A DNA stretch of 64,000 nucleotides, taken from NCBI GenBank assembly GCA_963710425.1, contig CAVQAR010000024.1, positions 85,935 through 149,934 of the forward strand. The letters run 5' to 3'. Within the stretch, counting starts at the first letter, position 1, and the number at the start of each line of letters is the position of its first letter. A program made the translations under genes and the position numbers. Below the pieces are notes generated by a model, which had not been told where the DNA came from, did no database searches, and saw nothing but the letters and a program-made list of their open reading frames with translations. Of the stretch, positions 44,062 through 62,714 are shown in pieces. The stretch is from an uncultured delta proteobacterium. GTDB lineage: Bacteria > Desulfobacterota > Binatia > Binatales > Binataceae.

Positions 44062-44650
44062 ATAGAACTCCGACCATTTGGCAGGACCGGGATTCAGATC
44101 TCCGCCGTCGGCTTTGGATGCTGGGAGATTGGCGGCGGCTAGGGCAGTATCGAGGAATCCGAGTTCATCAAGGCGGTTAATCGCGCTCGATCTTGGAATC
44201 AACTGCTGCGATACGGCCGAGCGTATGGGTTCGGTGCCTCCGGAAAAATTGCTGGCGAAAGCGCTCGGCTCGCGGCGCAAGGAAGCTATTATCACGACCA
44301 AGTTCGGCGTCGCCTACCCCGACGCTCCCAACTATCGCGAGAGCACGCGCAAGCGCGTCGCCTGAGTCGAATCGAGAAGGGCCTCCAGGTGCTCAACACC
44401 GGCTACGTTGACGTCTATCTGATACACTGGCCTGAGCGGACTACTTCGTTCGAAGAGCCGATGCAGGCGCTCGACGAGCTGGTGAAGCAAGGGAATGTGA
44501 GAGCGGTCGGCTTGTCAAACTTCAAGCTGATCGAGATCGAACGATGTGCGTGGATGCCGGCGATTGGCGCAACGATCCGAAGAGCACGATCAAAGCAGCT
44601 AACGATCCGGCTTTGTCGGTTTACCGCAAATTCCTGTGCGGCGACGGCGA
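44062..44650 (+). pseudogene. Aldo/keto reductase remnant: start codon lost, nonsense codon, indels, 3' truncation
   Basis: GGAGGG-6nt-ATA where an ATG is expected, then ELRPFGRTGIQISAVGFGCWEIGGG-TAG(44140)-GSIEE. The conserved LDLGINCCDTAE, AIITTKFG and VDVYLIHWP...VRAVGLSNF blocks are in shifting frames. Only about 200 of an expected ~320 aa remain before the converging LLM gene. Confidence 0.8.
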
Positions 44651-44665
44651 TACCTCGAAGTGAAC

Positions 44666-45673
44666 CTAGGACAGGCGCGGAAGGACCTTGTCGGTGAAGA
44701 GGGTGAACGACTCGTGGCTCAAAGGCGCGCACAACAAATATTCGAGCGGCATTTCCTCGCGCAAGCGTAGCAACTGATCGGTCACGGCGTCGGGAGTGCC
44801 ATATACGATCACGCCATTGAGGTAACGTTCGGCGGGGTCTCGGCTCGATTCGGCCATCTTCGGATCGATTCCCTTTAGCTTCGAGACATCGGCATCCTGT
44901 GGATGGGCATAGGAGCCGACGACCCATCGCGCGCCGCGCCGCGCGACTTCTTCCGCCTCGCGAGGAGTGTTAGCAATCGCGACAAACCTCGCGATGGGAA
45001 TCTCGCGTCCGGCAGTCGACCAGCCGGCGGCCTCGAGTAGCGTGCGATACAACTCTCGCTTGCGCGCTATTTCGCGATGCGATGAGTGCGGATCCATCAG
45101 GATTGTGAAGCCTTTCGCTGCCGCGCGTCTTATCGCTTCTTCCGAAGAAGCCGCCAGCCAGACCGGAGGATGAGGTTTCTGCCGCGGCTTGGGCAGAACC
45201 TCGATGTCGGAAAAATTGTAGTAGCGTCCTTCGTGCGTGAGCCGCTCGTTACTCCAGGCCTTCAGCACGATTTCGACTGACTCATGGAAACGCTCAGCAC
45301 TTTCTTCTGGTGTAACCCCGAATGCGCGGAACTCAGTCCTATCGAAGCCACGTCCCGCGCCCCAGTTCACGCGTCCGCCCGAAAAGATGTCGAGTAGCGC
45401 GACCTCTTCGGCCAGCCGCAGCGGATGATAAAACGCGGCGAGCGAGACCGCCGTTCCGATCCGCAGCCGCCGCGTGCGGGCGGCAACCTGCAGACCCATC
45501 ATGTGCACCGACGGACATACGCTGAACGAGTGGAAGTGATGCTCGGCGAGCCACACGGCGTCGTAGCCGGAGCTTTCCATTATTTCGATTCGCTGGAGCG
45601 CGCGCTCGTACACTGTCTCGATGGCGACGCGCCGCTCGGGCCAGCTGAAGAATTGAAGGACGCCTGCTTTCAT
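44666..45673 (-). CDS. LLM-class (luciferase-like) flavin-dependent oxidoreductase
   Basis: YDAVWLAEHHFHSFSVCPS...LRIGTAVSLAAFYHPLRLAEEVALLD. Intact 335 aa. Confidence 0.85.
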   Translation of the reverse strand: MKAGVLQFFSWPERRVAIETVYERALQRIEIMESSGYDAVWLAEHHFHSFSVCPSVHMMGLQVAARTRRLRIGTAVSLAAFYHPLRLAEEVALLDIFSGGRVNWGAGRGFDRTEFRAFGVTPEESAERFHESVEIVLKAWSNERLTHEGRYYNFSDIEVLPKPRQKPHPPVWLAASSEEAIRRAAAKGFTILMDPHSSHREIARKRELYRTLLEAAGWSTAGREIPIARFVAIANTPREAEEVARRGARWVVGSYAHPQDADVSKLKGIDPKMAESSRDPAERYLNGVIVYGTPDAVTDQLLRLREEMPLEYLLCAPLSHESFTLFTDKVLPRLS

Positions 45674-45728
45674 CGCTTTGCGGCTATCTCATTCCTGGAC
45701 TCTGTGCGAGCGCTCGCTGCTCGATGCG

Positions 45729-46921
45729 TCAGACCGGGTCGAGGCCGTCGAAGAGTGGAATTCCGAACGCGCTCTTGCCGAGAAATTCGAGCGTCTCGTC
45801 GCTGTCGAAAGGATGGTAGAGGCCGGCGCGAACGTCGCGGAACAGCCGTTCGAGCGGCAGCCGCTTGAAATACGACGACCCGCCGACGGCGCGAAGCGCC
45901 AGGTCCACCACGCGAACTGAATTCTCGACCGCGATCATCCGCGCGGCGACGGCCTTGCGCGACCAGCTCGCGGGATCGTCGGCGTCCATTTCCGCAGCCG
46001 CTTTCCACATCGCGGCGCGCGCACCTTCGATCAGCAAGTCCATCTCGCCGACTTTGTTGTAAACGGCCGGCAGATGACTCATCGGATTTTTGAGCGGGAA
46101 GCGCGTGCCGCTCGCGCATGAACTCGACCGTGAAATCGCGCGCGGACACGGCGATTCCGATGTACGGCGCGCCGATTGTGAATGGCGCCTTCGCAAACAC
46201 TTTCGTGATGCGTCCGCTCTTGGAGACCCGGCGCTGCAGCACCACGTCTGCGTCGGGCACGAACGCGTCCTTCAACTCGGAGCTGCGCGACGCGGTCGCC
46301 CGCATCCCCATCACATGCCAGTCGTCCTTGAAATTGAGGCCCGGTGTATCGCGCGGAGAAATGAAGCAGGTGATTATGGTGGGCCCGTGCGGTCCGTCTT
46401 CGCAGGTCGCCTCGAAAAAGAAGTGATCGATTGCCACACTCTGGGTGCCGAATATCTTGCGCCCGTTGACCAGCCATCCGCCATCGACCGGGCGCGCCTG
46501 CGTGCGCGGCCGCAGCGCGATGATCGCGTTGTCGGGCTCCGAGCCGGACCCGCCGCATATCAGGCTGCTCGGCCGCTATTCGGCGCAGCTTCTGCTCGAC
46601 ATTCGGTGCTTTGAACTTGCGATGCAAATCGACCAACAGCCCGACGGTGTTGAAGTGCATGTTGATCGCAAGCGCGGTCGCGCCGCATCCTTGCGCCAGA
46701 CGTTCCTGCGCCTTGATTCGCTCGAGCATCGTGGCGCCCAGTCCGCCGAGGCTCTCGGGAATGATCAGCCGCGTGTAGCCGCTCTCCTTCAGCCGTTCGT
46801 AGTTTTCGAACGGAAACGATCCCTCCTCGTCGTGGATGGCGGCGCGCTTGGCGAAGTCGTCGGCCATTTCGCCCGCCATATCGATGAAGCGCTGCTCACG
46901 CGCGGTATGAAGCTGATTCAT
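45729..46921 (-). CDS. Acyl-CoA dehydrogenase family protein, about two frame changes (near 46560 and 46110)
   Basis: The three ORFs 46079..46987, 45670..46437 and 45729..46196 carry consecutive ACAD-like segments (IIPESLGGLGAT; GSGSEPDNAI; GGSSYFKRLPLERLFRDVRAG). Confidence 0.75.
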
Positions 46922-46937
46922 TGGCTTGGCCCCGCCC

Positions 46938-47859
46938 TCAATCGTGTGCTGCCATGCCGGGAATCCACGCGTCGTAACCCGGCGCATAGTTGATGTTGCT
47001 CTGCGACGGATTGCGATTGACCAGCGGTCTCATGAAAAGCGGATGCCGCATGCTGCGCACCTCGTGCTCGATGGTGAACAGGGTCTCGCCGGTTTCAGGA
47101 TCGGCGAGGTCCTTGAATCGATACTGATGCTGATCGCTTTCCTCCGAGATGAGTCCCTTGTCGAGCAACTTCGGCGTACGGGCCAGAAAAATCCGCGACG
47201 TAAATCTGGATGTGATGGCCATCGTAGGGAGGGATCTCACGGTCGGTCTCGCGGAACATCAGATACTGTCCGATGCCTACTTCGACTCGCGCCACTCGAA
47301 TGCTTCCGTCGTCGTCCTTTGCGCTTTTGCCGGCGCCCTCTCCGCGCTGCAGCCTTGGCGCCCATCACGTTGCGGTAGAACCGCGCGATCCCGTCGGCGG
47401 TACCTTTCGGCACGTCGAATTCGACGTAAGCGATTCCTAACGTGATTCGGCCGAAGCGTTCATCGGGCGCGTAGCATCGGATGCGATTTCCCCACGGACA
47501 GGTGGCCTCGACGAACTCCTCGTGCTCGATGAAATCGAAGCGCGTCCCTTCGAGCCGTTTGCGAGTTCGTTCGAGCCGGCGAACCAGCGCCTCGCGATTG
47601 GGCACCACGATGCCGGTGTGACCGCGGAGAACCTGCGGCCGGGCTGGTCGGCAGATGGAACTGGCTGCGGCCGACGTTGACCCACATGTTGGTTGGCCCG
47701 GTCATTAGATAGGGATCGCGCGTCAGGCCTAGACCCGCGATGTAGAAAATGGTCGCCTGCTGCTGATCAGGGAACAGTTACGTTGACGTGTTCCAGCGCG
47801 ACGATGTTGCCGAGGTCTTCGACAGTTCGATTGAATCGACGCTCCATGGGAGCCTCCAT
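46938..47859 (-). CDS. VOC/glyoxalase-like protein of unknown function, at least four frame changes
   Basis: Consecutive segments (LEHVNVTVP; DQQQATIFYIAGLGLTRDPYLMTGPTNMWVNVGRSQFHLP; GITLGIAYVEFDVP; HHIQIYVADFSGPY; FTIEHEVRSMRHPLF) are each in a different frame. Confidence 0.5.
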
Positions 47860-48821: not shown

Positions 48822-51732
48822 ATGCCCGAAGATCTCGTCCAGTTTGAGGATTTTGTACTGAACCGCGGCGCCTATGAGCTGCGCCGGGGTGATGTCGTTA
48901 TTCCGCTCCAGCGGATTCCGCTCGAGCTGCTATGCCTGCTGGTCGAGCGCCGCGGACAGCTCGTTACGCGCGAGGAAATTCTCGAGCGGGTCTGGGGCAA
49001 GGGCGTCTTCGTCGATAGCGAGAACAGCATCAACACCGCGGTACGAAAAGTCCGGCGGGCCTTGAGCGACGATCCTGACGCCCCGCGCTTCGTCGTTACC
49101 GTGCCGGCCAGGGGTTATCGATTCGTCGCGGAGCTTCGCGGGCCGACGACAACTAGAGATGAGCAATTTCACGCGCGGCAGCCAGGCGTGATGGTGGGAC
49201 GCGAGCGCGAGGTGGCTTTATTGCTGAGCGGACTCGACGCGGCGGCTTCGCGGCGCGGGCGCCTGGTCCTGATTTCGGGCGAACCCGGCGTCGGCAAGAC
49301 GCGGATGGCGGATGAGGTTGCGGCCGCGGCTGAGGCAAAGCGGATGGCGGTGCTGGTCGGGCATTGCTCCGAGCACGACGAAGCCGTCGCGTATCTGCCA
49401 TTCGTGGAAATCCTGGAGAACTTCGTCGATCGCGCGTCGAATGCGGACACTCTTCGCGTTGCGTTGGGGGAGCAGGCGTCGGAGTTGGCGCGCTTGATTC
49501 CCAAACTCAAAAACATCCTGCCGGAGCTTCCGCCGCCGCTCGATTTGCCGCCGGCCCAGGCGCGACGCCACTTGTTCAATTGCTTTTTCGACTTCGTTGC
49601 TCGAATCGCTTCAAACCGACCGACTCTGATGATTCTCGAAGATCTTCACTGGGCCGACGATTCGACCTTGTCGCTGCTCGATCACCTGACGCAGCGGCCT
49701 ATCCGATTTGCCTCTGATGGTGATCGGCACCTACCGCGACGCCGAGGTCAATGTCACTCACGAGCTGGCAAAGACGCTGGAAGATTTACTCCGTGGGCGG
49801 CTTGCGACTCGCATCAGGCTCAAAGGCCTGCCACGCGATGAAGTGGCGGCGATGCTGAATAGCCTGAGCGGGAAATCGGCGCCGGCCACCGTAGTTGGCG
49901 AGATTTTCGCGGAGACTGAAGGCAATCCTTTCTTCGTCGAGGAATTGTTCCGCCATCTGGAGGAGGAGAATCGGCTGTACGATTCGGCGGGACAGTTTCG
50001 CTCCGAGCTCGAGATTGGCGAGCTGGACGCGCCGCCGAGCGTGAGGCTGGTCGTGGCGCGGCGACTGGCGCGGCTCAACGATCTGACACAGAAGATGCTC
50101 GCGACGGCGGCGGTGATCGGACGCTTCTTCAGTTTTGAAATTCTTCAGGCTTCGTGCGACTTCGATGCGGATTCGATTCTGGAGCGAGTCGAAGAAGCTG
50201 AAAAGGCCGGCGTGATTTTCTCGGTCGCGGAGAGTCCCAAGGTCCGGTTTGAGTTCTCTCACGAGCTTATTCGCCAGGCGGTGCTCGCCGGCTTGTCGGC
50301 GGCGCGACGCCAGCGGCTGCATCTCGAGGTCGCCGAAGCGATCGAGCGAACGTGTGCCGCCGGGTCGGCATCCACATTTGCCGGCAGCCTCGACGATCAC
50401 ATCACTGAACTGGCGCATCATTACGCGCATAGCGCCAACACCTGGCAGGCGGTGAAATATCTCCATCTGGCGGGCGAGCGCGCGGCGGCGTGCGGCGCGA
50501 TGGTCGAGGCGGAGCGTCAGTACCTGACCGCGCTCAAGCTCCTTGACGAATTGCCCGAAACGTCGGAACGAGACCGGCGCGAACTTGCCTTGCAGAGCCT
50601 GCTCGGTTCGGCCACTGCGGCCGTTAAGGGAATCGGCGCGCCTGAAAGAGAGCGCAGCCTTTTGCGGGCTCGCGATCTGTCACAACGCCTCGGGGAGCAA
50701 TCTCACGTGTTCCCGGTGCTCTGGCAGCTGTTCCATTTCCATGCACAGCGCGGTGAACTGCAAACCGCTCGGGAATACGCTGAACAGGCATTGGCAGTGG
50801 CCGAGAGTCAGTGCGACGCGGTGATGCTAGCGGATGCCCGAACCGCCCTCGGCGTCTGTCTCTTTTACATCGGCGACTTTGCTGCCTGCCGCAGGCAGTT
50901 CGAGCTCGCGCTCGCACAGGACATTCCTTTGCAAAAACGCCGCTATTTCGGCGAACGCGGGTTCGACGCGCTGGCAGGAGCGCTGAGCGCGCTGGCTGAG
51001 GGAATTCTTGGTTATCCGGACCGATGCTGCGTAGGAGTTGGCGAAGTTGTGAAGCGCGCGCGGACGCAGTCGAGCGTCCCTGACCTGGTGTTCGCGTTGG
51101 TAGCTTGTGGCCGGGGGCATCTTCTGGCCGGTAGTCCAAGCAGCGCCCAATCTTTGGCGGAAGAAACGATCACGCTGTCCGAGACCTACGGGTACGTCGA
51201 ACGCGCTGCATTGGGTAAATGTGTTCGAGGTGTCGCTCTCACAAGACAAGGAGAGCTCGATGAGGGTATAGCCTGCGTTCTCGAGGGACTCTCGGACTAT
51301 AGCGCGACCGGTGGCAGGCTCGGTCAGTCAGAGTTCTACAGCGCGCTTGCCGCAGCTTTCGGCAACGCAGGTCGAACTCAAGAGGGTTTGGAAGCGGTGG
51401 ACCGCGGACTGGCAATGGGCCGCGATGGTGGCGAGAGTTTCTATCGAGGCGAACTCTATCGCATAAGAGGGGAACTGATTCAGATCGAGGATCCGGCCAA
51501 TCCTGACGAGGTCGAGCGATTGTTTCGCACTGCGATCGATACTGCGTCCCGTCGGCAAGCCCGTTCATTTGAACTGCGCGCCACGACCAGCCTCGCGCGA
51601 TTGCTGGCGAAGCAAGGTCATCGCGACGAAGCGCGCGCGACGCTCGCCGAAATCTACAACTGGTTCACCGAGGGCTTCGATACCCCCGACCTCAAGGATG
51701 CCAGGACCCTGCTCGACGAGCTTAACGAATAG
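48822..51732 (+). CDS. Large transcriptional regulator: OmpR/PhoB-type winged helix + AAA ATPase + TPR, one frame change near 49706
   Basis: Trans_reg_C (ILERVWGK...VRKVRRAL...VPARGYRF). Walker A GEPGVGKT. LMILEDLHWAD. Long helical-repeat C-terminus. ORFs 48822..49841 and 49708..51732 are in different frames. Confidence 0.85.
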
Positions 51733-52884
51733 GATTGCCCGCAGAGATCTGCGCCCTCATCCCTTCTCTCGGCGTCGCGCAGGATATCGAGAGATATTCT
51801 CGCGTTCCAAACCGGAATCAAGTGGTCGGTAAGTTGGCACTCCCGGCGAGGTGAGATTGTGCGGATCGCTGTAAGTGCCTAATAGATAAGTCTGGAGGAG
51901 GAAGGGGCCCGGCGGCCCGACCGGTCTTCAAATCCCCTTCTGCGCGCCACGACAGATAATTCAGGGTTCGGTGGCTAGCAAAATCGTAGACTTCTCTGCT
52001 GCCAACGCTACCCTGGGCTACCCGGATGAAGGCTGGAGTGGGCACTCGGTGGGCAGTGCGGTAAGAATCCAAGGTCGGGGCAAGTTCAGTCCAAGACCAC
52101 GAAATAGCGGTCGACTCAGTAGTTTGCCCGCTGCGGAGGATTGGAGATCCAGTGCGTGGGTACCTCAGATAGGCGCCTCCCAGAGATTGGTTAGTTCGAA
52201 GAGGTGCAGCCAGCGCGCAATTCAGACCGCACGATCCGGAACGCCGGCGGCCCCCTAGCTAAGCTGACCACGCGCAGCGTATCGCCCGCTGGGTGGAGGC
52301 CGAGACTATTTGCCGTAAGCAGATGGGGTTCTCCTTCCAGGCCGTCGCCGAGCAGATTTCCCAGGTCGCCCGTGGCGAGGCGCAGCAGCTAATCCCATTT
52401 CACGCCTGGTATGGCCTTCCCGCCCGATTACAACATCAGGAGTCGTGCCGCCGCATCGCGGAAAATGAGCCCTTCGTTGAATTCGTTCGGCGCCGTCGGA
52501 CAGGTGTTCCCTGGTTTGGCTGGTTCAATTGATACCGAACGAACAGGCACTGACCGAATGCTACGTTGGTGAAGAGCACAGCCGTTATGAGAAGCGACCG
52601 AAACCTGCTCCATAGATCACCTTCAAACTGAACCGTCGGCTCAGATTTTGTCGCAATCGCTGAAATCCCGTTTACCGATTTGGCCCGCTGTTAACCATGG
52701 AGACCCTGAGAAACTTCGTGACTCTTTCAAGACTCCCCTTCAGAAAAGAGGTGGGCCGTGCTTTGCGTTGACGCACTGTGGTAGCTTTACCGCGCGCTCC
52801 AGCCTGACGCCGTTGGATGAGACTCGAAGGCTTCGTAACAACCGCTGGCGGGAGGTTCGCTCGCATCGTGGAGAGGGGGTCAGA

Positions 52885-55571
52885 TTGCCCGACAATCGAG
52901 AAGAAGCTGAATGGCTGACTCGCCGAGCGCGCGTCGATCCAAAGCTTCGCGGTTTGGACTGGGAGATCGTTCCATTCAAGCCCCATTTGGATCTGTCGAC
53001 GTGCACGCGGCACGCAGTCACTGAATTCCCGACGACCAACGGACCTGCTGACTACGCGCTCTTGCTCGACGGACGCATCGTCGGGATCCTTGAGGCGAAG
53101 AAGCTTTCGCTCGGGCCCCAGAACGTCCTGACCCAAGCCGAACGCTACGCGCGCGGTCTGCCGCCCGGCGAGTTCAACTTCGACGGCCGACGCGCGCCGT
53201 TCCTATACTCCACTAACGGCGAGGTGATCTGGTTCCACGACGTCCGCTCGCCTGCCAACCGCTCGAGGCGAATCGCGAGCTTCCATACGCCGGCGGCGCT
53301 GAGCGAAATGCTCGGGCGCGACTTCGACGTTGAGTGCGACCGGCTGAAGGCGCTACCAAACACCCACGGCTATCTGCGTCCATACCAACGAGAGGCCAAC
53401 GCCGCCATCGAGCGGGCCATAGCCGAGCGTAAGCGCGTGATGCTAGTCGCGATGGCGACGGGCACCGGCAAGACCTTCACGATGGTCAATGAGACGTACC
53501 GCCTGATGAAGTCCGGCGCCGCGCGCCGCGTCCTCTTCCTGGTCGATCGTCGCGCGTTGGCTGCGCAAGCGGTGCGTGAGTTCGCTTCGTTCGAAGCCGA
53601 GCCCGGGCTGAAGTTCGACAAGATCTACGAGGTCTATAGCCAGCGATTCCAACAGGACGACCTTGAACCGGGCGAGAAATTTGATCCCAAGGTGATGCCC
53701 TCCGGCCATCTGACTAACCCGAAACTTGGCGCCGCATTCGTCTACGTCTGCACCATCCAGAGCGCATGGCCCGGTATCTCTTTCCAGATCGAAGCTTCGA
53801 TCTCGGCGACGACGACGAAAAGGATCTGCCCGAGCCGTTGCCGATTCCGATCCATGCATTCGATCTGATCATCGCCGACGAATGCCATCGCGGATATACT
53901 GCCGCCGAGCAATCGCTCTGGCGCGACACGCTTGATCATTTCGACGCGATCAAGCTCGGCCTGACTGCGACACCGGCGAAGCACACAACCGCTTACTTCC
54001 GAGACATCGTTTATCGCTACGAATATCGCCGCGCAGTCGATGAAGGCTTTTTGGTCGACTACGATGCGGTCACGATCAAGTCCGGAGTGCTGATCAACGG
54101 CGTATTCCTGAAGGAAGGCGAGCAAGTCAGAACCATCGATACGAAGAGCGGCGCACAGAGCATGGACCAACTCGAGGACGAGCGTCAGTTCGAAGCGGCC
54201 GAAGTCGAAAAGAAAATTACCGTACCAGACACGAATTACAAAATCATCGAGGAAATAAAAAAGTACGCGCTGGATCATGAGCAACGCTACGGACGTTTTC
54301 CGAAGACGCTAATCTTTGCCGCTAATGACGTTCCCCACATTTCGCACGCTGACCAGCTCGTCAATCTCTGCCGCGACGCTTTCGGACGAGGCGATTCATT
54401 CGTTGCGAAGATCACCGGGACTGTAGACCGGCCGCTCCAACGGATCCGTGAGTTTCGCAATCGTCCCGCGCCGGCAATCGTCGTGTCTGTCGATCTGATG
54501 TCGACCGGCGTCGACATTCCAAATCTTGAGTTCATAGTGTTTCTGCGCCCCGTGAAATCACGAATTCTGTGGGAGCAGATGCTCGGGCGAGGAACTCGGC
54601 TCGGCACTCTCAGCCCGCCAAAGTCGCATTTCACGATCTTCGATTGTTTCGACGGAAGCCTGCTGAACTATTTCAAGAACGCATCCGCGTTCACTGAAGA
54701 TCCGCCCGACAAGCCGACCCGAACGATCGAGGAGATTATCCAGGCCATTTGGGATAATCGTGACCGAGTCTACAACGTCAAGTGTCTCAGTCGCCGCATG
54801 TTGCGGATCGACAAGGACATGTCGGGAAACGCGCGGGAGATTTTTGCCGCTTACGTTCCGGACGGCGACATGAAGGCCTTCGCCAACCGCTTACCTGCCG
54901 CCGTCACCGGGGACTTCACAGCGACCATGAGCCTTCTGCGGGACAAGAAGTTTCAGAAACTCCTGGTCAACTACGAACGCGCGCGACCGCATTTCATAGT
55001 CGCCCACGAGCTGACGGACGAAGTTACCTCTGGCCAACTGATCCGCGGCGCCGGTAACGAATACAAGCCGGAGGACTATCTCGCAGTGTTTTCTCGCTTC
55101 ATCCGGGACAACCCGGAACGTATTGAAGCGATTCGTATTCTCCTCAATCGGCCGAAAGACTGGAACACCGATGCCTTGTCTGAGTTGCGAAGAAAGCTAG
55201 CGTCTACTCCGGAACACTTCACAGTCGACAATCTCCAGAAGGCGCATGAAGCTCGCTACCATAAAGCGCTCGTCGACATCATTTCGATGGTCAAGCATGC
55301 CGCCAAAGAAGAGGAGCCGCTGCTGAGCGCCCCGGAGCGGGTCGAACGCGCGCTCAAGCGCATGGCCATAGGGCACAAGTTCACGGCCGAGCAGGAGAAA
55401 TGGTTCGAACGAATCCGCTCGCATCTGGTTGAGAATCTCTCGATCAGCCGTGACGACTTTGACATTGTGCCGGTTCTCTCCCATCACGGCGGATGGAAGC
55501 CAGCCGACCGAGCTTTCAATGGCAAGCTCAGTGGCCTGCTCTCGGAGATCAACGGAGCAATCGCGCAATGA
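52885..55571 (+). CDS. hsdR: Type I restriction enzyme R subunit (EcoEI-type C-terminal domain), one frame change near 53760; start uncertain (52648-52885)
   Basis: N-terminal nuclease-type region PADYALLLDGRIVGILEAKK. Helicase motifs MATGTGKT, ADECHRG and LTATP, plus VDLMSTGVDIP...QMLGRGTR. C-terminal FSRFIRDNPERIEAI region. Confidence 0.85.
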
Positions 55572-56968
55572 ACGAGAAGAACAACCATCATCCTGACGTA
55601 GTGCAGAAGTTATGGGGCTTCTGCCACGTGCTGCGTCACGACGGCATCGGATACGGCGACTACATCGAGCAGATAACTCTTCTGCTTTATCTCAAGATGG
55701 CCGACGAAAAGGGCGTCAAACTGCCAAAGGATTGCGGATGGAGGATTCTCCGCAGCAAAAGCGGCACCGACCTCCTCGATAGCTACATCGATATGCTACG
55801 CACGCTCGGCAAGGCGCCGGGTCTTATCGGCGACATCTACGCTGGCGCCCAATCGCGATTCAAGAAGCCGGCAAGCCTCAAGCAGCTTATCGGCACGATC
55901 GACGAGACCGAGTGGACCAGCCTCGACGTCGACGTGAAAGCCGCCGCCTACGAGGGATTGCTCGAGAAGGCCGCCAGCGAGGGCAAGAAAGGTGTCGGCG
56001 CAATTTTCACGCCCCGCATCCTCATCAAATCGATCGTCAGGTGTATGAAGCCGGACCCGCGCGTGCACAAGGAATTCACTATCTGCGATCCAGCGTGCGG
56101 CACCGGGGGGTTCCTCGTGTGCTCCTATGAATGGTTGATAGGGCAGACGCGCGGAGCGCTCGACAGAGAGACCGCAGCCCGCGTCAGAAGCAAGACTTAC
56201 TTCGGACAGGACATCGTCGAGCTTTCCCGTCGTCTCACCTTGATGAACTTGACGCTGCATACGCTGGAGCCTCAGATAAAGCTTGGCGATTCGATATACG
56301 AGGTGCCCGACTCTCGCCGCTTCGACGTTGTCCTGACCAATCCGCCGTTTGGCACCAGAGGCGCCAACCAAGCACCCGACCGCGATGACTTCACCGTTGC
56401 GACCTCGAACAAACAGCTTAACTTTCTCCAACACGTAATGACCATCCTCAAGCCGGGCGGCCGCGCCGCCGTGGTCTTGCCGGACAATTGCCTGTTCGCA
56501 GACCAGGCCGGCGAGGTCTTCGAGATTTTGACCCAGGACACTGACCTGCACACCGTTCTGCGCCTACCGCGTGGCACGTTCAGCCCTTACAGCCCGGGCG
56601 TTAAGTGCAACGTGATCTTCTTCACGAAGGGCGCACCGACCGAGAACGTTTGGATTTACGACGGTCGCACCAACGTTGAATGGATCACCAAGAAGGACAG
56701 GCCGCTTACGCCGGAGCACTTCGCTGAGTTCGAGCAATGCTTCGGCGGGGATCCCGACGGCCGCGCGAAGCGTAAGCCGGAACAGTCGAAGGAAGATCGA
56801 TGGCGCCGCTTCCATATCATCAGCGAGATCAAGGAGCGCGAGTTCAAGCTCGACGGCTTCAAGTGGCTTAAGGATGAATCGCTCGAAGACTCGGACGAGA
56901 TGCCCGAGCCCGAAGAGCTAGCGACCGATGCCATTGCTGAGTTGGAGAGTGCCGTCGAGGATTATTAG
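55568..56968 (+). CDS. hsdM: Type I restriction-modification N6-adenine DNA methyltransferase
   Basis: HsdM_N-like N-terminus (LWGFCHVLRHDG...YIEQITLLLYLKM). Motif I DPACGTGGFL. Motif IV LTNPPFG. The ATG overlaps the hsdR stop. Confidence 0.9.
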   Translation: MNEKNNHHPDVVQKLWGFCHVLRHDGIGYGDYIEQITLLLYLKMADEKGVKLPKDCGWRILRSKSGTDLLDSYIDMLRTLGKAPGLIGDIYAGAQSRFKKPASLKQLIGTIDETEWTSLDVDVKAAAYEGLLEKAASEGKKGVGAIFTPRILIKSIVRCMKPDPRVHKEFTICDPACGTGGFLVCSYEWLIGQTRGALDRETAARVRSKTYFGQDIVELSRRLTLMNLTLHTLEPQIKLGDSIYEVPDSRRFDVVLTNPPFGTRGANQAPDRDDFTVATSNKQLNFLQHVMTILKPGGRAAVVLPDNCLFADQAGEVFEILTQDTDLHTVLRLPRGTFSPYSPGVKCNVIFFTKGAPTENVWIYDGRTNVEWITKKDRPLTPEHFAEFEQCFGGDPDGRAKRKPEQSKEDRWRRFHIISEIKEREFKLDGFKWLKDESLEDSDEMPEPEELATDAIAELESAVEDY

Positions 56969-57031: not shown

Positions 57032-57298
57032 TTGGCCGAGGAGCTGTTCAGGCTTGCCGATGCGATCGAAAAGCGCGTCGCGGCGGCGACAGCTCGCACC
57101 GAAAAGCTCACGCAATCGATTCTCGCCAAAGCATTTCGTGGTGAGCTCGTTCCGACCGAGGCGGAACTGGCCCGTGAAGAGGGACGTGAGTACGAGTCGG
57201 CTTCTGCCCTTCTGACACGAATTCGCTCTGAGGTCGCCAGCAAGACTGTGAGGAAGGAGGAGCGAAAGGGCAGTGCCCCGGCTGCGCTACTATCCTGA
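57032..57298 (+). pseudogene. hsdS: Remnant of a type I specificity subunit: only the conserved C-terminal helix is left
   Basis: KLTQSILAKAFRGELVPTEAELAREEGREYESASALLTRI matches the conserved HsdS C-terminal tail. No target-recognition domain is present between 56969 and 57031. Confidence 0.6.
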
Positions 57299-58353
57299 CC
57301 AGTTTCCGGCCTTCATGGGTGCCGCCTTCGGCCAGCCCACCGAAATCAATTTCACCTGGGCGGAACTGGGCAAATCAGCAGTCACTGTAGGGCGACAGAA
57401 CTGGGTCGATGTCCTTCGCTTTGGGCCCTTTTCCGTATTCGAATTGACTTGGAGGGTCGCAATGCTTTGGGCGAACCTTCGCGAAGACCCAAGTGGGCTC
57501 CTGGTCCCGTCTGAAGCGTTCGTCAACCTCGATCCGTCGGAGAGCGGCGCAATCTCTTACTTTCTCGGGAACTGCTTCACCAAACTCGTGGTAGAGAATC
57601 TCTTCGGCGTCCCTTGGCTCATGCACCTGGATGTGTATCGCCGCAGCCTGGGCATCGTGCTGACTTCCAATAGTCGCCCGGACTTCGTCGGCCTCGATCT
57701 GCAAAGACAATGGGCGGTAGTCGAAGCCAAAGGACATATGCTTAGAATGCGGCGCGACACAATGCAAAAAGCGAAGCGCCAGACCCGTTCTGTGAGGCGG
57801 ATCGCTGGTCAGAATCCCGCGCTCAGGACTGCCGTTGGAGTCTGGTTCTCCAAGACCAGCGGCACGAACGCTAAGGTCTGGGACCCTCGTGGTTACGACC
57901 GTGGAGCAGAAGATTTCGACATAAATACAGACCATTTTCTGAGGCTTTACTACGAACCGCTGATTGACCGGACTGGCTTCCTCCAGATTCGTCCGAGCCG
58001 GCGCGCACCGAGCAAGAAACTGCGCCGCCCTCTTCCGCTTCAGCCGTTCGATGCCGAGATCATTCTCGACAATGACATCGTCGCCGGGTACGCGCGCGGC
58101 GCTCCACCTGGGAGAGGTGGTGATCGCGCCGAGGGTCGGCATCGAAGATTCCATTCTCGCGGCGCTTGCGACATTGGAAGAAAGCGAGAGAGGCGAGGCA
58201 CGCCGCGATATTACTGACAACCTGCAAATACTCGTCGAGAAGCGCCGCACGTCTGACATTTCTGAAACGCCAGCCGATGGGGTGACGGTGGAACTCGGAC
58301 CCGCGTGGCGCCCCGAAAACATGCGGCGAGAACCCGCAGATCGTAGCCGTTGA
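57273..58353 (+). CDS. Uncharacterised protein with a PD-(D/E)xK nuclease-like motif, one frame change near 58100
   Basis: GTG start after AGGAAGGAGGAG. RPDFVGLDLQRQWAVVEAKGH gives PD...ExK spacing. The C-terminal part continues in the frame of ORF 57964..58353. Confidence 0.55.
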
Positions 58354-58478
58354 CCAGATGTCTAGAACTTGTACACGGGAAAGATGAAATCGGCCGCTAG
58401 GTCGATCGCGAATATGGAGAAATGCCAAGTTCCTGGCGACCTGCAAGCCGATAGAAGCTGGAGGTAAGCGAACGAACC

Positions 58479-59690
58479 GTGCCAAATACATCCAGAAACG
58501 CGCCCTGTCACTGTGGTAGCGGGAAGAAGTACAAAAGGTGTCATGGTAAAGGTTCGCCTATGTCTACCGTACACGGGCCAGCACCGATTCGAATGCCGCC
58601 GCAAGGCACAACGCAAAATCTTCCCGCCAAGGGCTTGCCGGGTCTGCCTCAATACCTCACGGTGGTTTTCGAGTATCGCGATCCTGCTGATCCCCGGAAC
58701 CGCGCAGGACCTCAGGGGCAGCCGGGAAAATATGACGTGGTGTTCACGCTAAATCGACCGGGCTTTTCGCTGCAACCTGAATACAATTCAAGCTTCGCGG
58801 ATGGACTAAAAGGAACATCGCATCTAGCCATAGGTAGGCCGGCGCATCCGTCGGTTGACCCGACCATCGACCGAATTCGCTTAGACGCTGTAGTGGAATC
58901 AGAGCGCTTCGTTTTTACTGGCCATCCTGACGCCGGCGGATTTCTCTCGAAGATGATGGGGAGCTGTTATGCCAATGGGTTTTTGGACGCGCACCGTAAG
59001 GCGTTCCGAGCCATAGCTCCCATTCTAAGCAACTGGTCCCTGCAATTAGACATTCCCGTTTCAATTTATCAAGTCGACCTGACCGAAGTAGCGTCCGGCG
59101 CGAAGAGAATGACATTCAATCCGCCCTTTCAGACCTCTCCTTTGTTGACGCGACCAGATGTCGCGCTGAAACCAGAATTTCGCGGTTACGCTAGCCTCTA
59201 CCGAGAAGCACTCAACAGCAACAGCCCCGTTTATCAATTTCTATGTTACTTCAAGATAATAGAGAGCGCGCGCAAACGACGAGAGCGGCTCGCGGGTGAG
59301 GCACGCAATCGAGTCGAGTCTTTTGCCCGACCCCCTGAAGTGTTCCCGTCCGATCCGGAAGGATTATTTCCCTGGCTGAACGCGCTATTCACCGTCAGAC
59401 CGCCTGTTTGGGACGAGATGGTGATCGAGAGCCTGCTCATGCCTGAGGTCATCGGAAAGAAATTTGGAACCATCATCGAACGGCAGCTAATCCCGTTGCG
59501 GACGAGCGTTGCTCATGCTCTTTTCGAGAGCGCCGAAATGAGCCTGTCCGTTGACGACTATATTAGCCACGAAAGAGTAAACAGATTTCTTCCCGTCGCC
59601 AAATGCATGGTTCGGCGAATGCTCAAGAATGAATTTGCCGCAGACTTTCTCGCTCACTTGCCAGATCCCACTCCAACCGGAAGCGCATGA
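58479..59690 (+). CDS. SEC-C-motif protein with an uncharacterised C-terminal domain carrying an Rx4H motif
   Basis: N-terminal APCHCGSGKKYKRCHG (SEC-C Zn motif, nt 58500-58547). C-terminal helical region YQFLCYFKIIESARKRRE...LIPLRTSVAHAL (R341-H346, nt 59499-59516). Intact 403-aa ORF. Confidence 0.65.
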   Translation: MPNTSRNAPCHCGSGKKYKRCHGKGSPMSTVHGPAPIRMPPQGTTQNLPAKGLPGLPQYLTVVFEYRDPADPRNRAGPQGQPGKYDVVFTLNRPGFSLQPEYNSSFADGLKGTSHLAIGRPAHPSVDPTIDRIRLDAVVESERFVFTGHPDAGGFLSKMMGSCYANGFLDAHRKAFRAIAPILSNWSLQLDIPVSIYQVDLTEVASGAKRMTFNPPFQTSPLLTRPDVALKPEFRGYASLYREALNSNSPVYQFLCYFKIIESARKRRERLAGEARNRVESFARPPEVFPSDPEGLFPWLNALFTVRPPVWDEMVIESLLMPEVIGKKFGTIIERQLIPLRTSVAHALFESAEMSLSVDDYISHERVNRFLPVAKCMVRRMLKNEFAADFLAHLPDPTPTGSA

Positions 59691-59853
59691 CTGGTTTTGC
59701 GCGAGAGCCTGAAGGTTGGTGGGCGGAAGACGGAAACCACACCGCGCGGAATGTCCGAGTCCTAGACCAACGCACCGGATCTACAGTCCGTGGCGCGCAG
59801 AATTCGACAATGAATAGAAGAGCAATTTCCTGACTTGGACTGAACTTGGGCCG

Positions 59854-61361: not shown

Positions 61362-62714
61362 ATGAACTGCACATCGTGCCATTCTGACAATCGTTCGCCG
61401 TCACGGTTCTGCGAGCATTGCGGCAGCCAGATTGATTTTTTTGACGCGAGTAGTAGACGCAACGCCCCAACAGCCGATCGCCCGCGCCCGGCCGTTGGGC
61501 CCGCTGTCGTCTCTCGGGCCCTCCTGTCAGTACGGCGGTATCTAAGTTTCCTCCGGTGGCTCATTTTGCAGCCGGTCAACCGGCTGGTTTCTCGTCATAA
61601 GGTCTCAAACAAATCGGGCGCGATACTCGTTGTTCATCCCTGCCGGATTGGCGACATGATCCTTTGGCTCGATGCTGCGCGTGGCTTGCGTGAACTGTAT
61701 CCAGCGCCTGCACACCGAATCGTTTTGCTGGCCGATACGGCCAGTGCGTCGCTGGTGCGCTCGCAACCGTATTTCGATTGTGTATTGGAGCTGGATCGAG
61801 CGCGTTTTTCCAAAAGTCCTCTGTATCGTTGGCAAATGCTTCGGAGAATCGCAGGCGAAGGATTTTCAGTTGCCCTGAATCCAGCGGCTTGGCAGGACTA
61901 TTACGTCGCGGATAGCATCATGGGCGCGTTAGGGGCCCCCGAAAGGGTGGGGTGGTCACTACGGCCCGACTCTCATTCGCCAGGCGAGCGTCTGATGAGA
62001 GTTTGGCGTGCCCGCAAATACAGTCTTCTATTGTCGATGCCCACGGAGAACCGGGGTATACTTCGACTTAATTCCGAGTTCCTGCATGCGCTTGGCCACG
62101 ATGGTTTCGCACCGCGCGCACCGAAACTGAATCTCGACCGGAAGGTTGACGTGGTGGCCGCCTCGCCCCCGTACTATGTGCTATGTCCAGGCGCGACGGA
62201 CCCACTAAAGCGCTGGCCCTCCGGGCGGTTTGCGGCGCTCGCTGAGGGCATTTTTGCCGCCACCGGAATGCGCGGCACGATATGCGGTTCGATCGCTGAA
62301 AAACAGCTCGCGATTGCGATTTGCAGGCTCGCCGACGCCCCACTTTCCGATCTCACCGGATCCCTGTCCCTGGAACAATTTGCCCAATTCGCCGCCGGCG
62401 CGAGCCTGGTTATTTCAAATGATTCGGGCCCTCTTCACGTCGCCGCCGCGTCGGGGGCGCCAACGCTCTGCATTCTGGGAGGAGGAAGGTTTGGTTGGTG
62501 CGTGCCCTATGATTCTCCTCCGCAAGAAGGCACGTGCTTGCCGCAGGCCGTCTGGCATCCAATGGAGTGCTTCGGTTGCGGCTGGCGTTGCCCTTTTGAG
62601 ATTTCACCTGAAGGTGCTGCGCCATGCGTCGTCAACATATCGGCCGCAGAAGCAACCGCAGCGGCTCTTGCGATTCTTGCTTCAAACGAAGCTCATAAAC
62701 CAGGAACATCGTAA
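61362..62714 (+). CDS. Family 9 glycosyltransferase (heptosyltransferase-like) with an N-terminal zinc ribbon
   Basis: CTSCHSDNRSPSRFCEHCG (CxxC...CxxC). GT9 signature VISNDSGPLHVAAASGAPTLCILGG. Confidence 0.75.
   Translation: MNCTSCHSDNRSPSRFCEHCGSQIDFFDASSRRNAPTADRPRPAVGPAVVSRALLSVRRYLSFLRWLILQPVNRLVSRHKVSNKSGAILVVHPCRIGDMILWLDAARGLRELYPAPAHRIVLLADTASASLVRSQPYFDCVLELDRARFSKSPLYRWQMLRRIAGEGFSVALNPAAWQDYYVADSIMGALGAPERVGWSLRPDSHSPGERLMRVWRARKYSLLLSMPTENRGILRLNSEFLHALGHDGFAPRAPKLNLDRKVDVVAASPPYYVLCPGATDPLKRWPSGRFAALAEGIFAATGMRGTICGSIAEKQLAIAICRLADAPLSDLTGSLSLEQFAQFAAGASLVISNDSGPLHVAAASGAPTLCILGGGRFGWCVPYDSPPQEGTCLPQAVWHPMECFGCGWRCPFEISPEGAAPCVVNISAAEATAAALAILASNEAHKPGTS

Follow-up and report, generated by a model that had tools for sequence, protein, structure and literature searches.

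The 64,000-nucleotide window analysed here, from contig CAVQAR010000024.1 of an uncultured delta proteobacterium (Binataceae), contains an intact open reading frame (ORF) at positions 58479-59690 of the forward strand. With a probability of about 0.5 for the reading as a whole, this gene encodes a stand-alone, HEPN-type, metal-independent endoribonuclease, most likely with a role in conflict or defence. The predicted protein combines an N-terminal SEC-C metal-binding knuckle, a flexible linker, a beta-rich domain and a C-terminal helical domain (Table 1). The helical domain is a member of the Pfam family MauJ and carries a candidate catalytic R-x4-H motif, formed by R341 and H346. An initial annotation, made from the DNA and a list of its ORFs, had proposed a HEPN ribonuclease (RNase) at this position. 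Its coordinates, quoted peptides and residue numbers all agree with the ORF list and the sequence.

The R-x4-H motif is located in residues 337-351 (LIPLRTSVAHALFES) and is strictly conserved. A homologue search returned 248 proteins, chiefly from Acidobacteriota metagenome-assembled genomes (MAGs), and the 120 homologues listed, with identities of 43-92%, were aligned with MAFFT. A HMMER search with a profile of the C-terminal domain identified 888 representatives of 50%-identity clusters at E<=1e-3, 192 of them at E<=1e-30. The 146 cluster representatives retrieved and the query form a representative set of 147 sequences. R341 and H346 are invariant in 120/120 homologues and in 147/147 sequences of the representative set, so the conservation on which the earlier proposal depended is complete. 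A 403-residue protein would have about one R-x4-H by chance alone, and it is the invariance that sets this motif apart. Conservation is high over the full length, with a mean column identity of 48% in the homologue alignment.

The surroundings of the motif were compared with those in HEPN families. The position after R341 is mostly N, D or H in the representative set (N in 56, D in 36 and H in 8 sequences; V in 29). A survey of HEPN families describes the residue following the arginine as "typically polar (mostly N, D or H)" (PMC3710099). An acidic position in helix 2, often part of E-x3-[KR], is also typically conserved in these families (PMC3710099). In the window protein the equivalent would be E262, within residues 241-269 (YREALNSNSPVYQFLCYFKIIESARKRRE). 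Of the 147 sequences, 137 have E and 8 have D in this column. Conserved basic residues follow at +5 and +6 (R267 and R268), and K266, at +4, is found in the window protein only.

Structure prediction indicated a helical C-terminal domain, as the initial annotation had expected. An AlphaFold2 (AF2) model of the full protein, based on a 77-sequence alignment, has a mean predicted local distance difference test score (pLDDT) of 87 and a predicted template modelling score (pTM) of 0.81. The helical domain modelled alone reached a pLDDT of 88 and a pTM of 0.84. HEPN domains have a four-helix core composed of two hairpins, in which helix 3 ends with the motif and helices 2 and 3 are often separated by an insert (PMC3710099). 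The order of elements in both models fits this layout, which is a comparison of order, Foldseek having returned no HEPN match. R341 and H346 are located in the C-terminal third of the predicted helix 3, E262 and the two arginines in helix 2, and two short helices form the insert.

Weak profile matches point to the same helix. In 77 close members, a Pfam search at E<=10 produced no HEPN family except one PaREP1 match at E 0.19. In the 146 representatives, HEPN_RiboL-PSP (PF18735) was the most frequent family after MauJ and SEC-C, with four members matched (best E 8.5e-4), and HEPN_MAE_28990 was matched once. To locate the matches, the C-terminal domains were concatenated and scanned in two batches of ~50 domains each. 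Eleven weak matches (E 0.002-0.2) to four HEPN-named Pfam families were found, and all of them land on helix 3, at the segment L-x-P-x-R-[NH]-x-x-[AS]-H. The profile positions are constant: ~140-175 of 191 for RiboL-PSP, ~66-93 of 115 for Swt1-like, 94-195 and 156-176 of 211 for MAE_28990, and 77-100 of 152 for pEK499_p136. One MAE_28990 match, 104 residues long, begins in helix 2 and extends as far as helix 4. Weak matches to unrelated profiles (Acyltransf_C, DUF7750 and singletons) fall elsewhere. No HEPN match is significant alone, and their clustering in one superfamily and one helix is hard to ascribe to chance. As judged from these profiles, the similarity to HEPN families is largely motif-centred.

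The recurrent Acyltransf_C match (PF16076, profile ~18-39) was also located. It covers residues ~283-303 of the insert between helices 2 and 3, with the pattern 'P...E...WL..(I/L)F', and is probably a short helix-motif coincidence.

The helical domain is not without a family, as the initial annotation had supposed. It matches PF17419, MauJ, a family of unknown function, with 61.3 bits against a cut-off of 28, and residues 238-383 align with positions 2-116 of the 116-position profile. The same match is present in all 77 close and all 146 representative relatives. A tblastn search of plasmids located an annotated mauJ in the mauF-B-E-D-A-J cluster of Indioceanicola profundi, which hhalign aligned with our family at 94.6% probability. 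With 35 canonical MauJ proteins, including that of Methylorubrum extorquens, the probability is 97.5% (E 6e-12) over residues 139-387. The common region thus consists of the second half of the beta-rich domain and the helical domain. Unlike the window protein, canonical MauJ is ~300 amino acids long, lacks SEC-C and the first half of the beta-rich domain, and is encoded within mauFBEDA-J operons.

Comparison of the two groups suggests that the polar residues have a specific role. In canonical MauJ the H346 column contains no histidine in any of the 35 sequences (G15, A5 and others), the R341 column is R17/H13 of 35, and E262 is not conserved. Other polar invariants are replaced as well, both in the beta-rich domain (K158 by E, S184 by L/D, D191 by G and Q198 by G) and in the helical domain (K259 by A, E262 by A/D, R267 by G, H346 by G/A and D359 by G). 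The hydrophobic and glycine core is kept, with G154 in 34/35, L156 in 31/35, A171 in 35/35 and L183 in 32/35. Because canonical MauJ loses the polar invariants while keeping the fold and the hydrophobic residues, these invariants are likely to form a functional rather than a structural site. Their joint loss suggests that the polar residues of both domains serve one function. PF17419 is composed of a small, probably non-catalytic mau-operon clade and a far larger clade with strictly constrained polar residues, which includes the window gene.

No mau genes are found near the window gene or in the flanks of the 79 loci whose neighbours were counted (see below). Because of this context and the different invariant residues, the window protein is not expected to function as a MauJ, and the name conveys no mechanism for it. 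Mutants in mauJ itself reportedly had no clear phenotype (Chistoserdov et al. in 1994 and van der Palen et al. in 1995). Most canonical MauJ proteins (P0267-P0301) have a motif of their own, R-[VI]-A-D-x-x-H-G-A, at ~residues 120-130 in the region of the beta-rich domain. It is absent from the window clade and may be a functional site of true MauJ.

The N-terminal part of the protein was analysed in the same way. The GTG start codon is preceded by a Shine-Dalgarno-like GGAGG at a somewhat long spacing of 14 nucleotides. The N-terminus agrees with the homologue consensus MxKxGRNxPCPCGSGKKYKxCHG, so the start codon is well placed. A promoter and terminator scan gave no signal beyond shuffled expectation. 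The SEC-C assignment of the initial annotation (residues 8-23, APCHCGSGKKYKRCHG) is secure, since residues 6-24 match PF02810 with 33.5 bits against a cut-off of 20.4. A PDB sequence search with the family profile matched the SEC-C peptides of SecA and YchJ (E 4e-9, SecA C-terminal peptide 1ozb) and produced no other match. The knuckle is at the N-terminus, as had been stated, but this position is not unprecedented: the methionyl aminopeptidase family NF008970 of NCBIfam aligns with it through positions 2-20 of the profile. An in-frame SEC-C is present at 47/79 related loci and is missing from ~40%. The closest homologue (P0001, 92% identical) also contains it, its gene call being simply too short. 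Domains of the SEC-C and SecA-like metal-binding type bind either zinc or iron and interact with both SecB and ribosomes (bioRxiv 10.1101/613315); for YchJ, a redox-sensing role has been reported (PMC13377102).

The Pro/Gly-rich linker that follows is predicted to be disordered, in agreement with the initial annotation, with pLDDT values below 50 (45-49) for residues 25-36. In the AF2 model the beta-rich domain contains one long helix, residues 168-190. Its invariant polar residues are D71, R73, N74, Y85, R93, E101, S114, H115, K158, S184, D191 and Q198, as many as in the helical domain.

The gene has a patchy distribution. A pattern scan confirmed at least 126 relatives among 185,579 species genomes. 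Eighty related loci were taken from species-representative genomes, and neighbours were counted over 79 of them. The loci are mostly from Terriglobia, with a few from Planctomycetota, Myxococcota, Dormibacterota, Gemmatimonadota and Verrucomicrobiota (six phyla). ORF calling and all-against-all clustering within 6 kb found no neighbour family in more than 5/79 loci, and in a pooled Pfam scan of 146 immediate flanking genes no family occurred more than twice. The gene is solitary, since no neighbour family recurs. The flanking genes are mostly housekeeping, with some TIR, integrase, IS200 transposase, HipA, DUF5677 and N6_Mtase genes among them. No conserved adjacent partner, as in a type II toxin-antitoxin or two-gene defence module, was found across the 79 loci.

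DNA comparison showed that homology is often limited to the gene. With P0001, which is 91% identical at the nucleotide level, it covers window positions 58468-59692 only, that is, the ORF with 11 bp upstream and 2 bp downstream, and the flanks are unrelated. Gene-only homology, at 75-92% nucleotide identity, was found in at least seven other species pairs. The gene has a guanine-cytosine (GC) content of 53.7% versus 59.8% for the window. The window contains no transfer RNA (tRNA) that could mark an island boundary. Being solitary and low in GC, with ORF-limited homology and a patchy spread, the gene has the traits of an accessory gene that moves horizontally. One MAG contains two family copies that are 98.7% identical, on two contigs over 1 Mb (L026 and L029), inside a duplicated and partly rearranged segment of ~10 kb. 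Single-gene transposition was rejected for these copies because of the ~10 kb length of the duplication, which points to segmental duplication or co-binned strains.

In the window, the gene is located at the 3' end of a type I restriction-modification (R-M) island. There hsdM is intact and hsdR and hsdS are disrupted, so the R-M system looks decayed. The breaks in hsdR, hsdS and the gene upstream of the ORF could be real decay or (long-read) assembly errors. Locally, the remark of the initial annotation about an intact ORF in broken surroundings is borne out. A collinear island is present in the metagenomic contig L091, with an intact hsdR of 896 amino acids and a longer hsdS, itself frameshifted. 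Nucleotide identities between L091 and the window are 77% for hsdR and hsdM, 79% for the 3' end of hsdS and 71% for the MauJ-like gene. The intact SEC-C/MauJ-like ORF of L091 (9587-10783, forward strand) begins ~40 nucleotides before the hsdS stop codon. This overlap makes it the fourth cistron of the R-M operon and suggests translational coupling. The L091 copy contains an asparagine at H115, a residue that is otherwise invariant.

The R-M neighbourhood described by the initial annotation is therefore real in the lineage of the window, which includes L091, but does not extend to the family. R-M-like genes are found within 10 kb at 3/79 loci, and a family-wide association was rejected for this reason. 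In the window lineage the neighbourhood is seen in the window, in L091 and, with a different type of R-M system, in L001. P0001 is located next to an Eco57I-like enzyme, a PLD-SNF2 helicase, a HATPase-methylase pair and a reverse transcriptase. Other fairly close relatives are found among acyl-CoA dehydrogenases or other metabolic genes. The link to R-M operons and defence islands is a property of the window sub-lineage, not of the family.

These data are consistent with the following mechanism, in which we infer RNase activity, dimerization, the roles of the beta-rich and SEC-C domains, and the defence role. The helical MauJ domain would supply the active site, in which E262 of helix 2 would assist the R341/H346 pair where helix 3 ends. 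If other HEPN enzymes are a guide, dimerization would probably complete the site. The conserved beta-rich domain would pack on the helical domain and serve as a built-in regulatory or substrate/trigger-binding module, and SEC-C on its flexible linker would be an optional targeting or sensing module. In the window lineage the gene sits at the tail of a type I R-M operon, and a part in conflict or defence is its most likely role. The protein may be a growth-arresting RNase released on infection or stress, as other single-gene HEPN effectors are, and may act in abortive infection. RAZR (PD-T7-4), a zinc finger joined to a divergent DUF4145-type HEPN RNase, is a complete single-gene abortive-infection system (PMC13017515). 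The defence role is proposed because the gene is solitary, mobile and low in GC, because its closest relatives are in an R-M operon or defence islands, and because of the RAZR precedent.

A number of observations weigh against this proposal. Foldseek returned nothing significant for the full model against PDB (best E 0.04), or for the C-terminal domain against PDB (best E 4.2) and BFVD (best E 0.7). No HEPN Pfam model attains its cut-off, and the weak matches cover chiefly the motif helix. They were obtained with real member sequences only, the family and subclade consensus sequences giving no HEPN match in Pfam. NCBIfam and PADLOC scans of the window protein recognised the SEC-C motif alone. 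The residue after R341 is a threonine in the window protein and often a valine in its subclade. The phage collection yielded no member of the family, and the plasmid collection yielded a single one, a canonical mauJ. Because housekeeping contexts dominate and R-M-like genes are so rare near the gene, the defence role has no family-wide support. The HEPN assignment of the initial annotation retains the motif, the helix order, the helix-2 acid and the sub-threshold matches, but no Foldseek HEPN match or significant model stands behind it. Membership of the helical domain in HEPN is not established, and we consider it probable.

The strongest competing explanation is a housekeeping or stress RNase for RNA processing. 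SEC-C would dock the HEPN-type nuclease on the ribosome, as the metal-binding domain of SecA does, for processing or quality control of ribosomal RNA, tRNA or messenger RNA in Acidobacteriota. The predominance of housekeeping neighbourhoods, the high full-length conservation and the lack of an antitoxin-like partner are all consistent with this role, as are the binding of SEC-C to ribosomes and SecB (bioRxiv 10.1101/613315) and the N-terminal SEC-C of a ribosome-associated enzyme family, the methionyl aminopeptidases of NF008970. However, a housekeeping enzyme is not expected to have such a patchy spread across phyla, no synteny, frequent gene-only homology and low GC. It is also not expected to lack its docking module at ~40% of loci, or to have its closest relatives inside an R-M operon or defence islands. 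We regard this explanation as rather improbable, though it is the one most deserving of consideration. A non-catalytic accessory protein is less likely again. Here R341 and H346 would bind a ligand or partner or be structural, in a chaperone or scaffold such as MauJ is presumed to be in methylamine dehydrogenase clusters. Membership in Pfam MauJ, the clear homology to mau-operon MauJ across both domains and the existence of HEPN domains without nuclease activity (PMC3710099) argue for it. But none of the 79 loci has mau genes nearby, and true MauJ has lost precisely the residues that the window clade keeps invariant, so the functions differ. HEPN domains that retain the motif are, moreover, predicted to be RNases (PMC3710099).

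An active site in the beta-rich domain was also considered. In this case S114, H115, K158, S184, D191 and E101 would form, for example, a hydrolase acting on a non-RNA substrate, R341 and H346 would only bind substrate, and the resemblance to HEPN would be convergent. The beta-rich domain equals the helical domain in its number of invariant polar residues, the two sets are lost together in canonical MauJ, and no structural match to HEPN was obtained. Nor did Pfam, NCBIfam or structure searches return a hydrolase of any kind; H115 is an asparagine in the otherwise intact L091 copy, and the weak profile matches point specifically to HEPN families. Such an enzyme seems to us slightly less plausible even than the accessory protein. 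The initial annotation had raised the ORF immediately upstream, a PD-(D/E)xK-like gene, as a possible partner. It is on the same strand and adjacent in the window, and its intact 321-residue homologue in L064 (8280-9245, reverse strand) is ~750 bp from a family member. But the window gene is frameshifted relative to this homologue and is absent from the collinear island of L091. The L064 case is divergent in orientation and is the only adjacency in the 79 other loci, and the plasmid homologues occur without a MauJ-like gene. A two-gene system is close to refuted.

A bolder version of the endoribonuclease proposal is doubtful. The MauJ fold may represent an unrecognised two-domain HEPN family, in which a single centre for catalysis or sensing is built jointly from the novel beta-rich domain and the HEPN helices, and SEC-C directs the protein to ribosomes or senses a trigger. 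The gene would then be a new single-gene abortive-infection or toxin system, widespread in soil Acidobacteriota, and MauJ of the mau operon a catalytically dead, co-opted derivative.

Table 1. Positions of the candidate gene, its domains and predicted helices, and the genes of the neighbouring island in the window
Feature	Window positions	Strand	Protein residues	Basis or remarks
Intact ORF, 403 aa, GTG start	58479-59690	+	1-403	ORF list; SEC-C, linker, beta-rich domain, MauJ/HEPN-like helical domain
Shine-Dalgarno-like GGAGG, 14 nt 5' of GTG	58460-58464	+		Seen in the sequence
SEC-C metal-binding knuckle (C10, C12, C21, H22)	58479-58550	+	1-24	Pfam PF02810
Pro/Gly-rich flexible linker	58551-58610	+	25-44	Composition and low pLDDT
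Beta-rich domain	58611-59117	+	45-213	AF2 model; no known fold or family match
Helical domain, HEPN-like layout	59172-59633	+	232-385	Pfam MauJ PF17419 and AF2 models
E262, conserved acidic residue of helix 2	59262-59264	+	262	Representative alignment
R341-T-S-V-A-H346, candidate catalytic R-x4-H near end of helix 3	59499-59516	+	341-346	Alignments, weak HEPN Pfam matches
Helix H1			232-246	AF2 model
Helix H2, with E262 then R267 and R268			250-277	AF2 model
Insert, two short helices			278-328	AF2 model
Helix H3, R341 and H346 in C-terminal third			329-350	AF2 model
Low-confidence loop			351-357	AF2 model
Helix H4			361-385	AF2 model
hsdR, type I restriction subunit, split into two overlapping ORFs (52648-53868, 53766-55571)	52648-55571	+		Pfam ResIII, HSDR_N, Helicase_C, EcoEI_R_C
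hsdM, type I N6-adenine methyltransferase	55493-56968	+		Pfam N6_Mtase, E 5.8e-56
hsdS C-terminal remnant, 88 aa	57032-57298	+		78.5% nt identical to 3' end of the longer hsdS frame of L091
Frameshifted PD-(D/E)xK-like gene (RPDFVGL...VVEAKG)	57273-58353	+		Independent island gene, not a partner

The PD-(D/E)xK-like gene has no Pfam, NCBIfam or PADLOC match. Its homologues are solitary on plasmids of Streptomyces, Azospirillum and Enterococcus, where the neighbours are integrases, a MazE/Doc pair, insertion sequence (IS) elements or an "abortive infection protein", and never a MauJ-like gene. It may represent an uncharacterised stand-alone nuclease or defence family.

Other regions of the window were also inspected. 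Just upstream of the R-M island, at 48822-51732 on the forward strand, two ORFs are apparently one gene, with Trans_reg_C and an AAA_16/STAND-like ATPase followed by TPR repeats. It appears to encode a large regulator of the signal-transduction ATPase type. On the reverse strand, 44415-46987 contains overlapping ORFs in different frames (44415-44927, 44666-45673, 45670-46437 and 46079-46987), consistent with more frameshifted genes or assembly errors and in keeping with what the initial annotation said of broken genes on the contig. A heptosyltransferase-family (Glyco_transf_9) protein with an N-terminal zinc-ribbon-like CxxC...CxxC is encoded at 61362-62714 on the forward strand. In L002 the family member is likewise flanked by a Glyco_transf_9 gene, which is probably a coincidence.

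If the endoribonuclease proposal is correct, the MauJ family of Pfam, named for a gene without established function, would gain a mechanistic assignment. PF17419 would fall into two clades, one of active RNases, with at least 192 clusters at 50% identity, and a degenerate one encoded in mau operons. The combination of SEC-C, a new beta domain and HEPN would add a domain architecture to the HEPN proteins. A candidate single-gene effector of conflict or defence would also be available for Acidobacteriota, a phylum that is abundant in soil and whose immune repertoire has hardly been studied. The fusion to SEC-C leads to a hypothesis open to testing, that RNA cleavage is targeted to ribosomes or gated by metal or redox state. 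The label "methylamine utilization protein MauJ" on such acidobacterial genes is misleading. A literature search found no paper linking MauJ to HEPN and no relevant paper on PF17419.

The window protein can be compared with several known systems. ApeA-type defence proteins reportedly combine an N-terminal non-helical domain and a C-terminal HEPN nuclease in one stand-alone gene; their models in PADLOC and Pfam do not match the window protein. RAZR resembles it in logic, with a zinc module and a HEPN-like domain in one gene. However, RAZR contains a Cys4 zinc ribbon instead of SEC-C, has an R146...H154 spacing in DUF4145, and lacks the beta-rich middle domain. No Pfam match to DUF4145 was found at E<=10 in 77 plus 146 members, and PADLOC matched only the SEC-C motif of E2-like proteins and not the RAZR model. 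Because DUF4145 and the Cys4 ribbon are not matched, the window protein is placed outside the RAZR family. With the SecA C-terminal tail, YecA and YchJ it shares the CxC...C[HC] knuckle. In those proteins the knuckle belongs to a translocase or chaperone, whereas here it precedes a putative nuclease at the N-terminus, and ~40% of relatives do without it.

The closest parallels are with HEPN families, several of which are associated with R-M operons (PMC3710099). Unlike RiboL-PSP (PF18735), Swt1-like (PF18731), MAE_28990-like (PF18737) and pEK499_p136 (PF18736), the window protein has an N-terminal beta-rich domain, and its family has arginines at +5 and +6 after the acidic residue in place of the typical E-x3-[KR]. 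These four families and the window family share the invariant R-x4-H and the N, D or H after the arginine. As in HEPN RNases, the motif in the window protein model is located where the third core helix ends, together with an acidic residue in helix 2 and an insert between helices 2 and 3.

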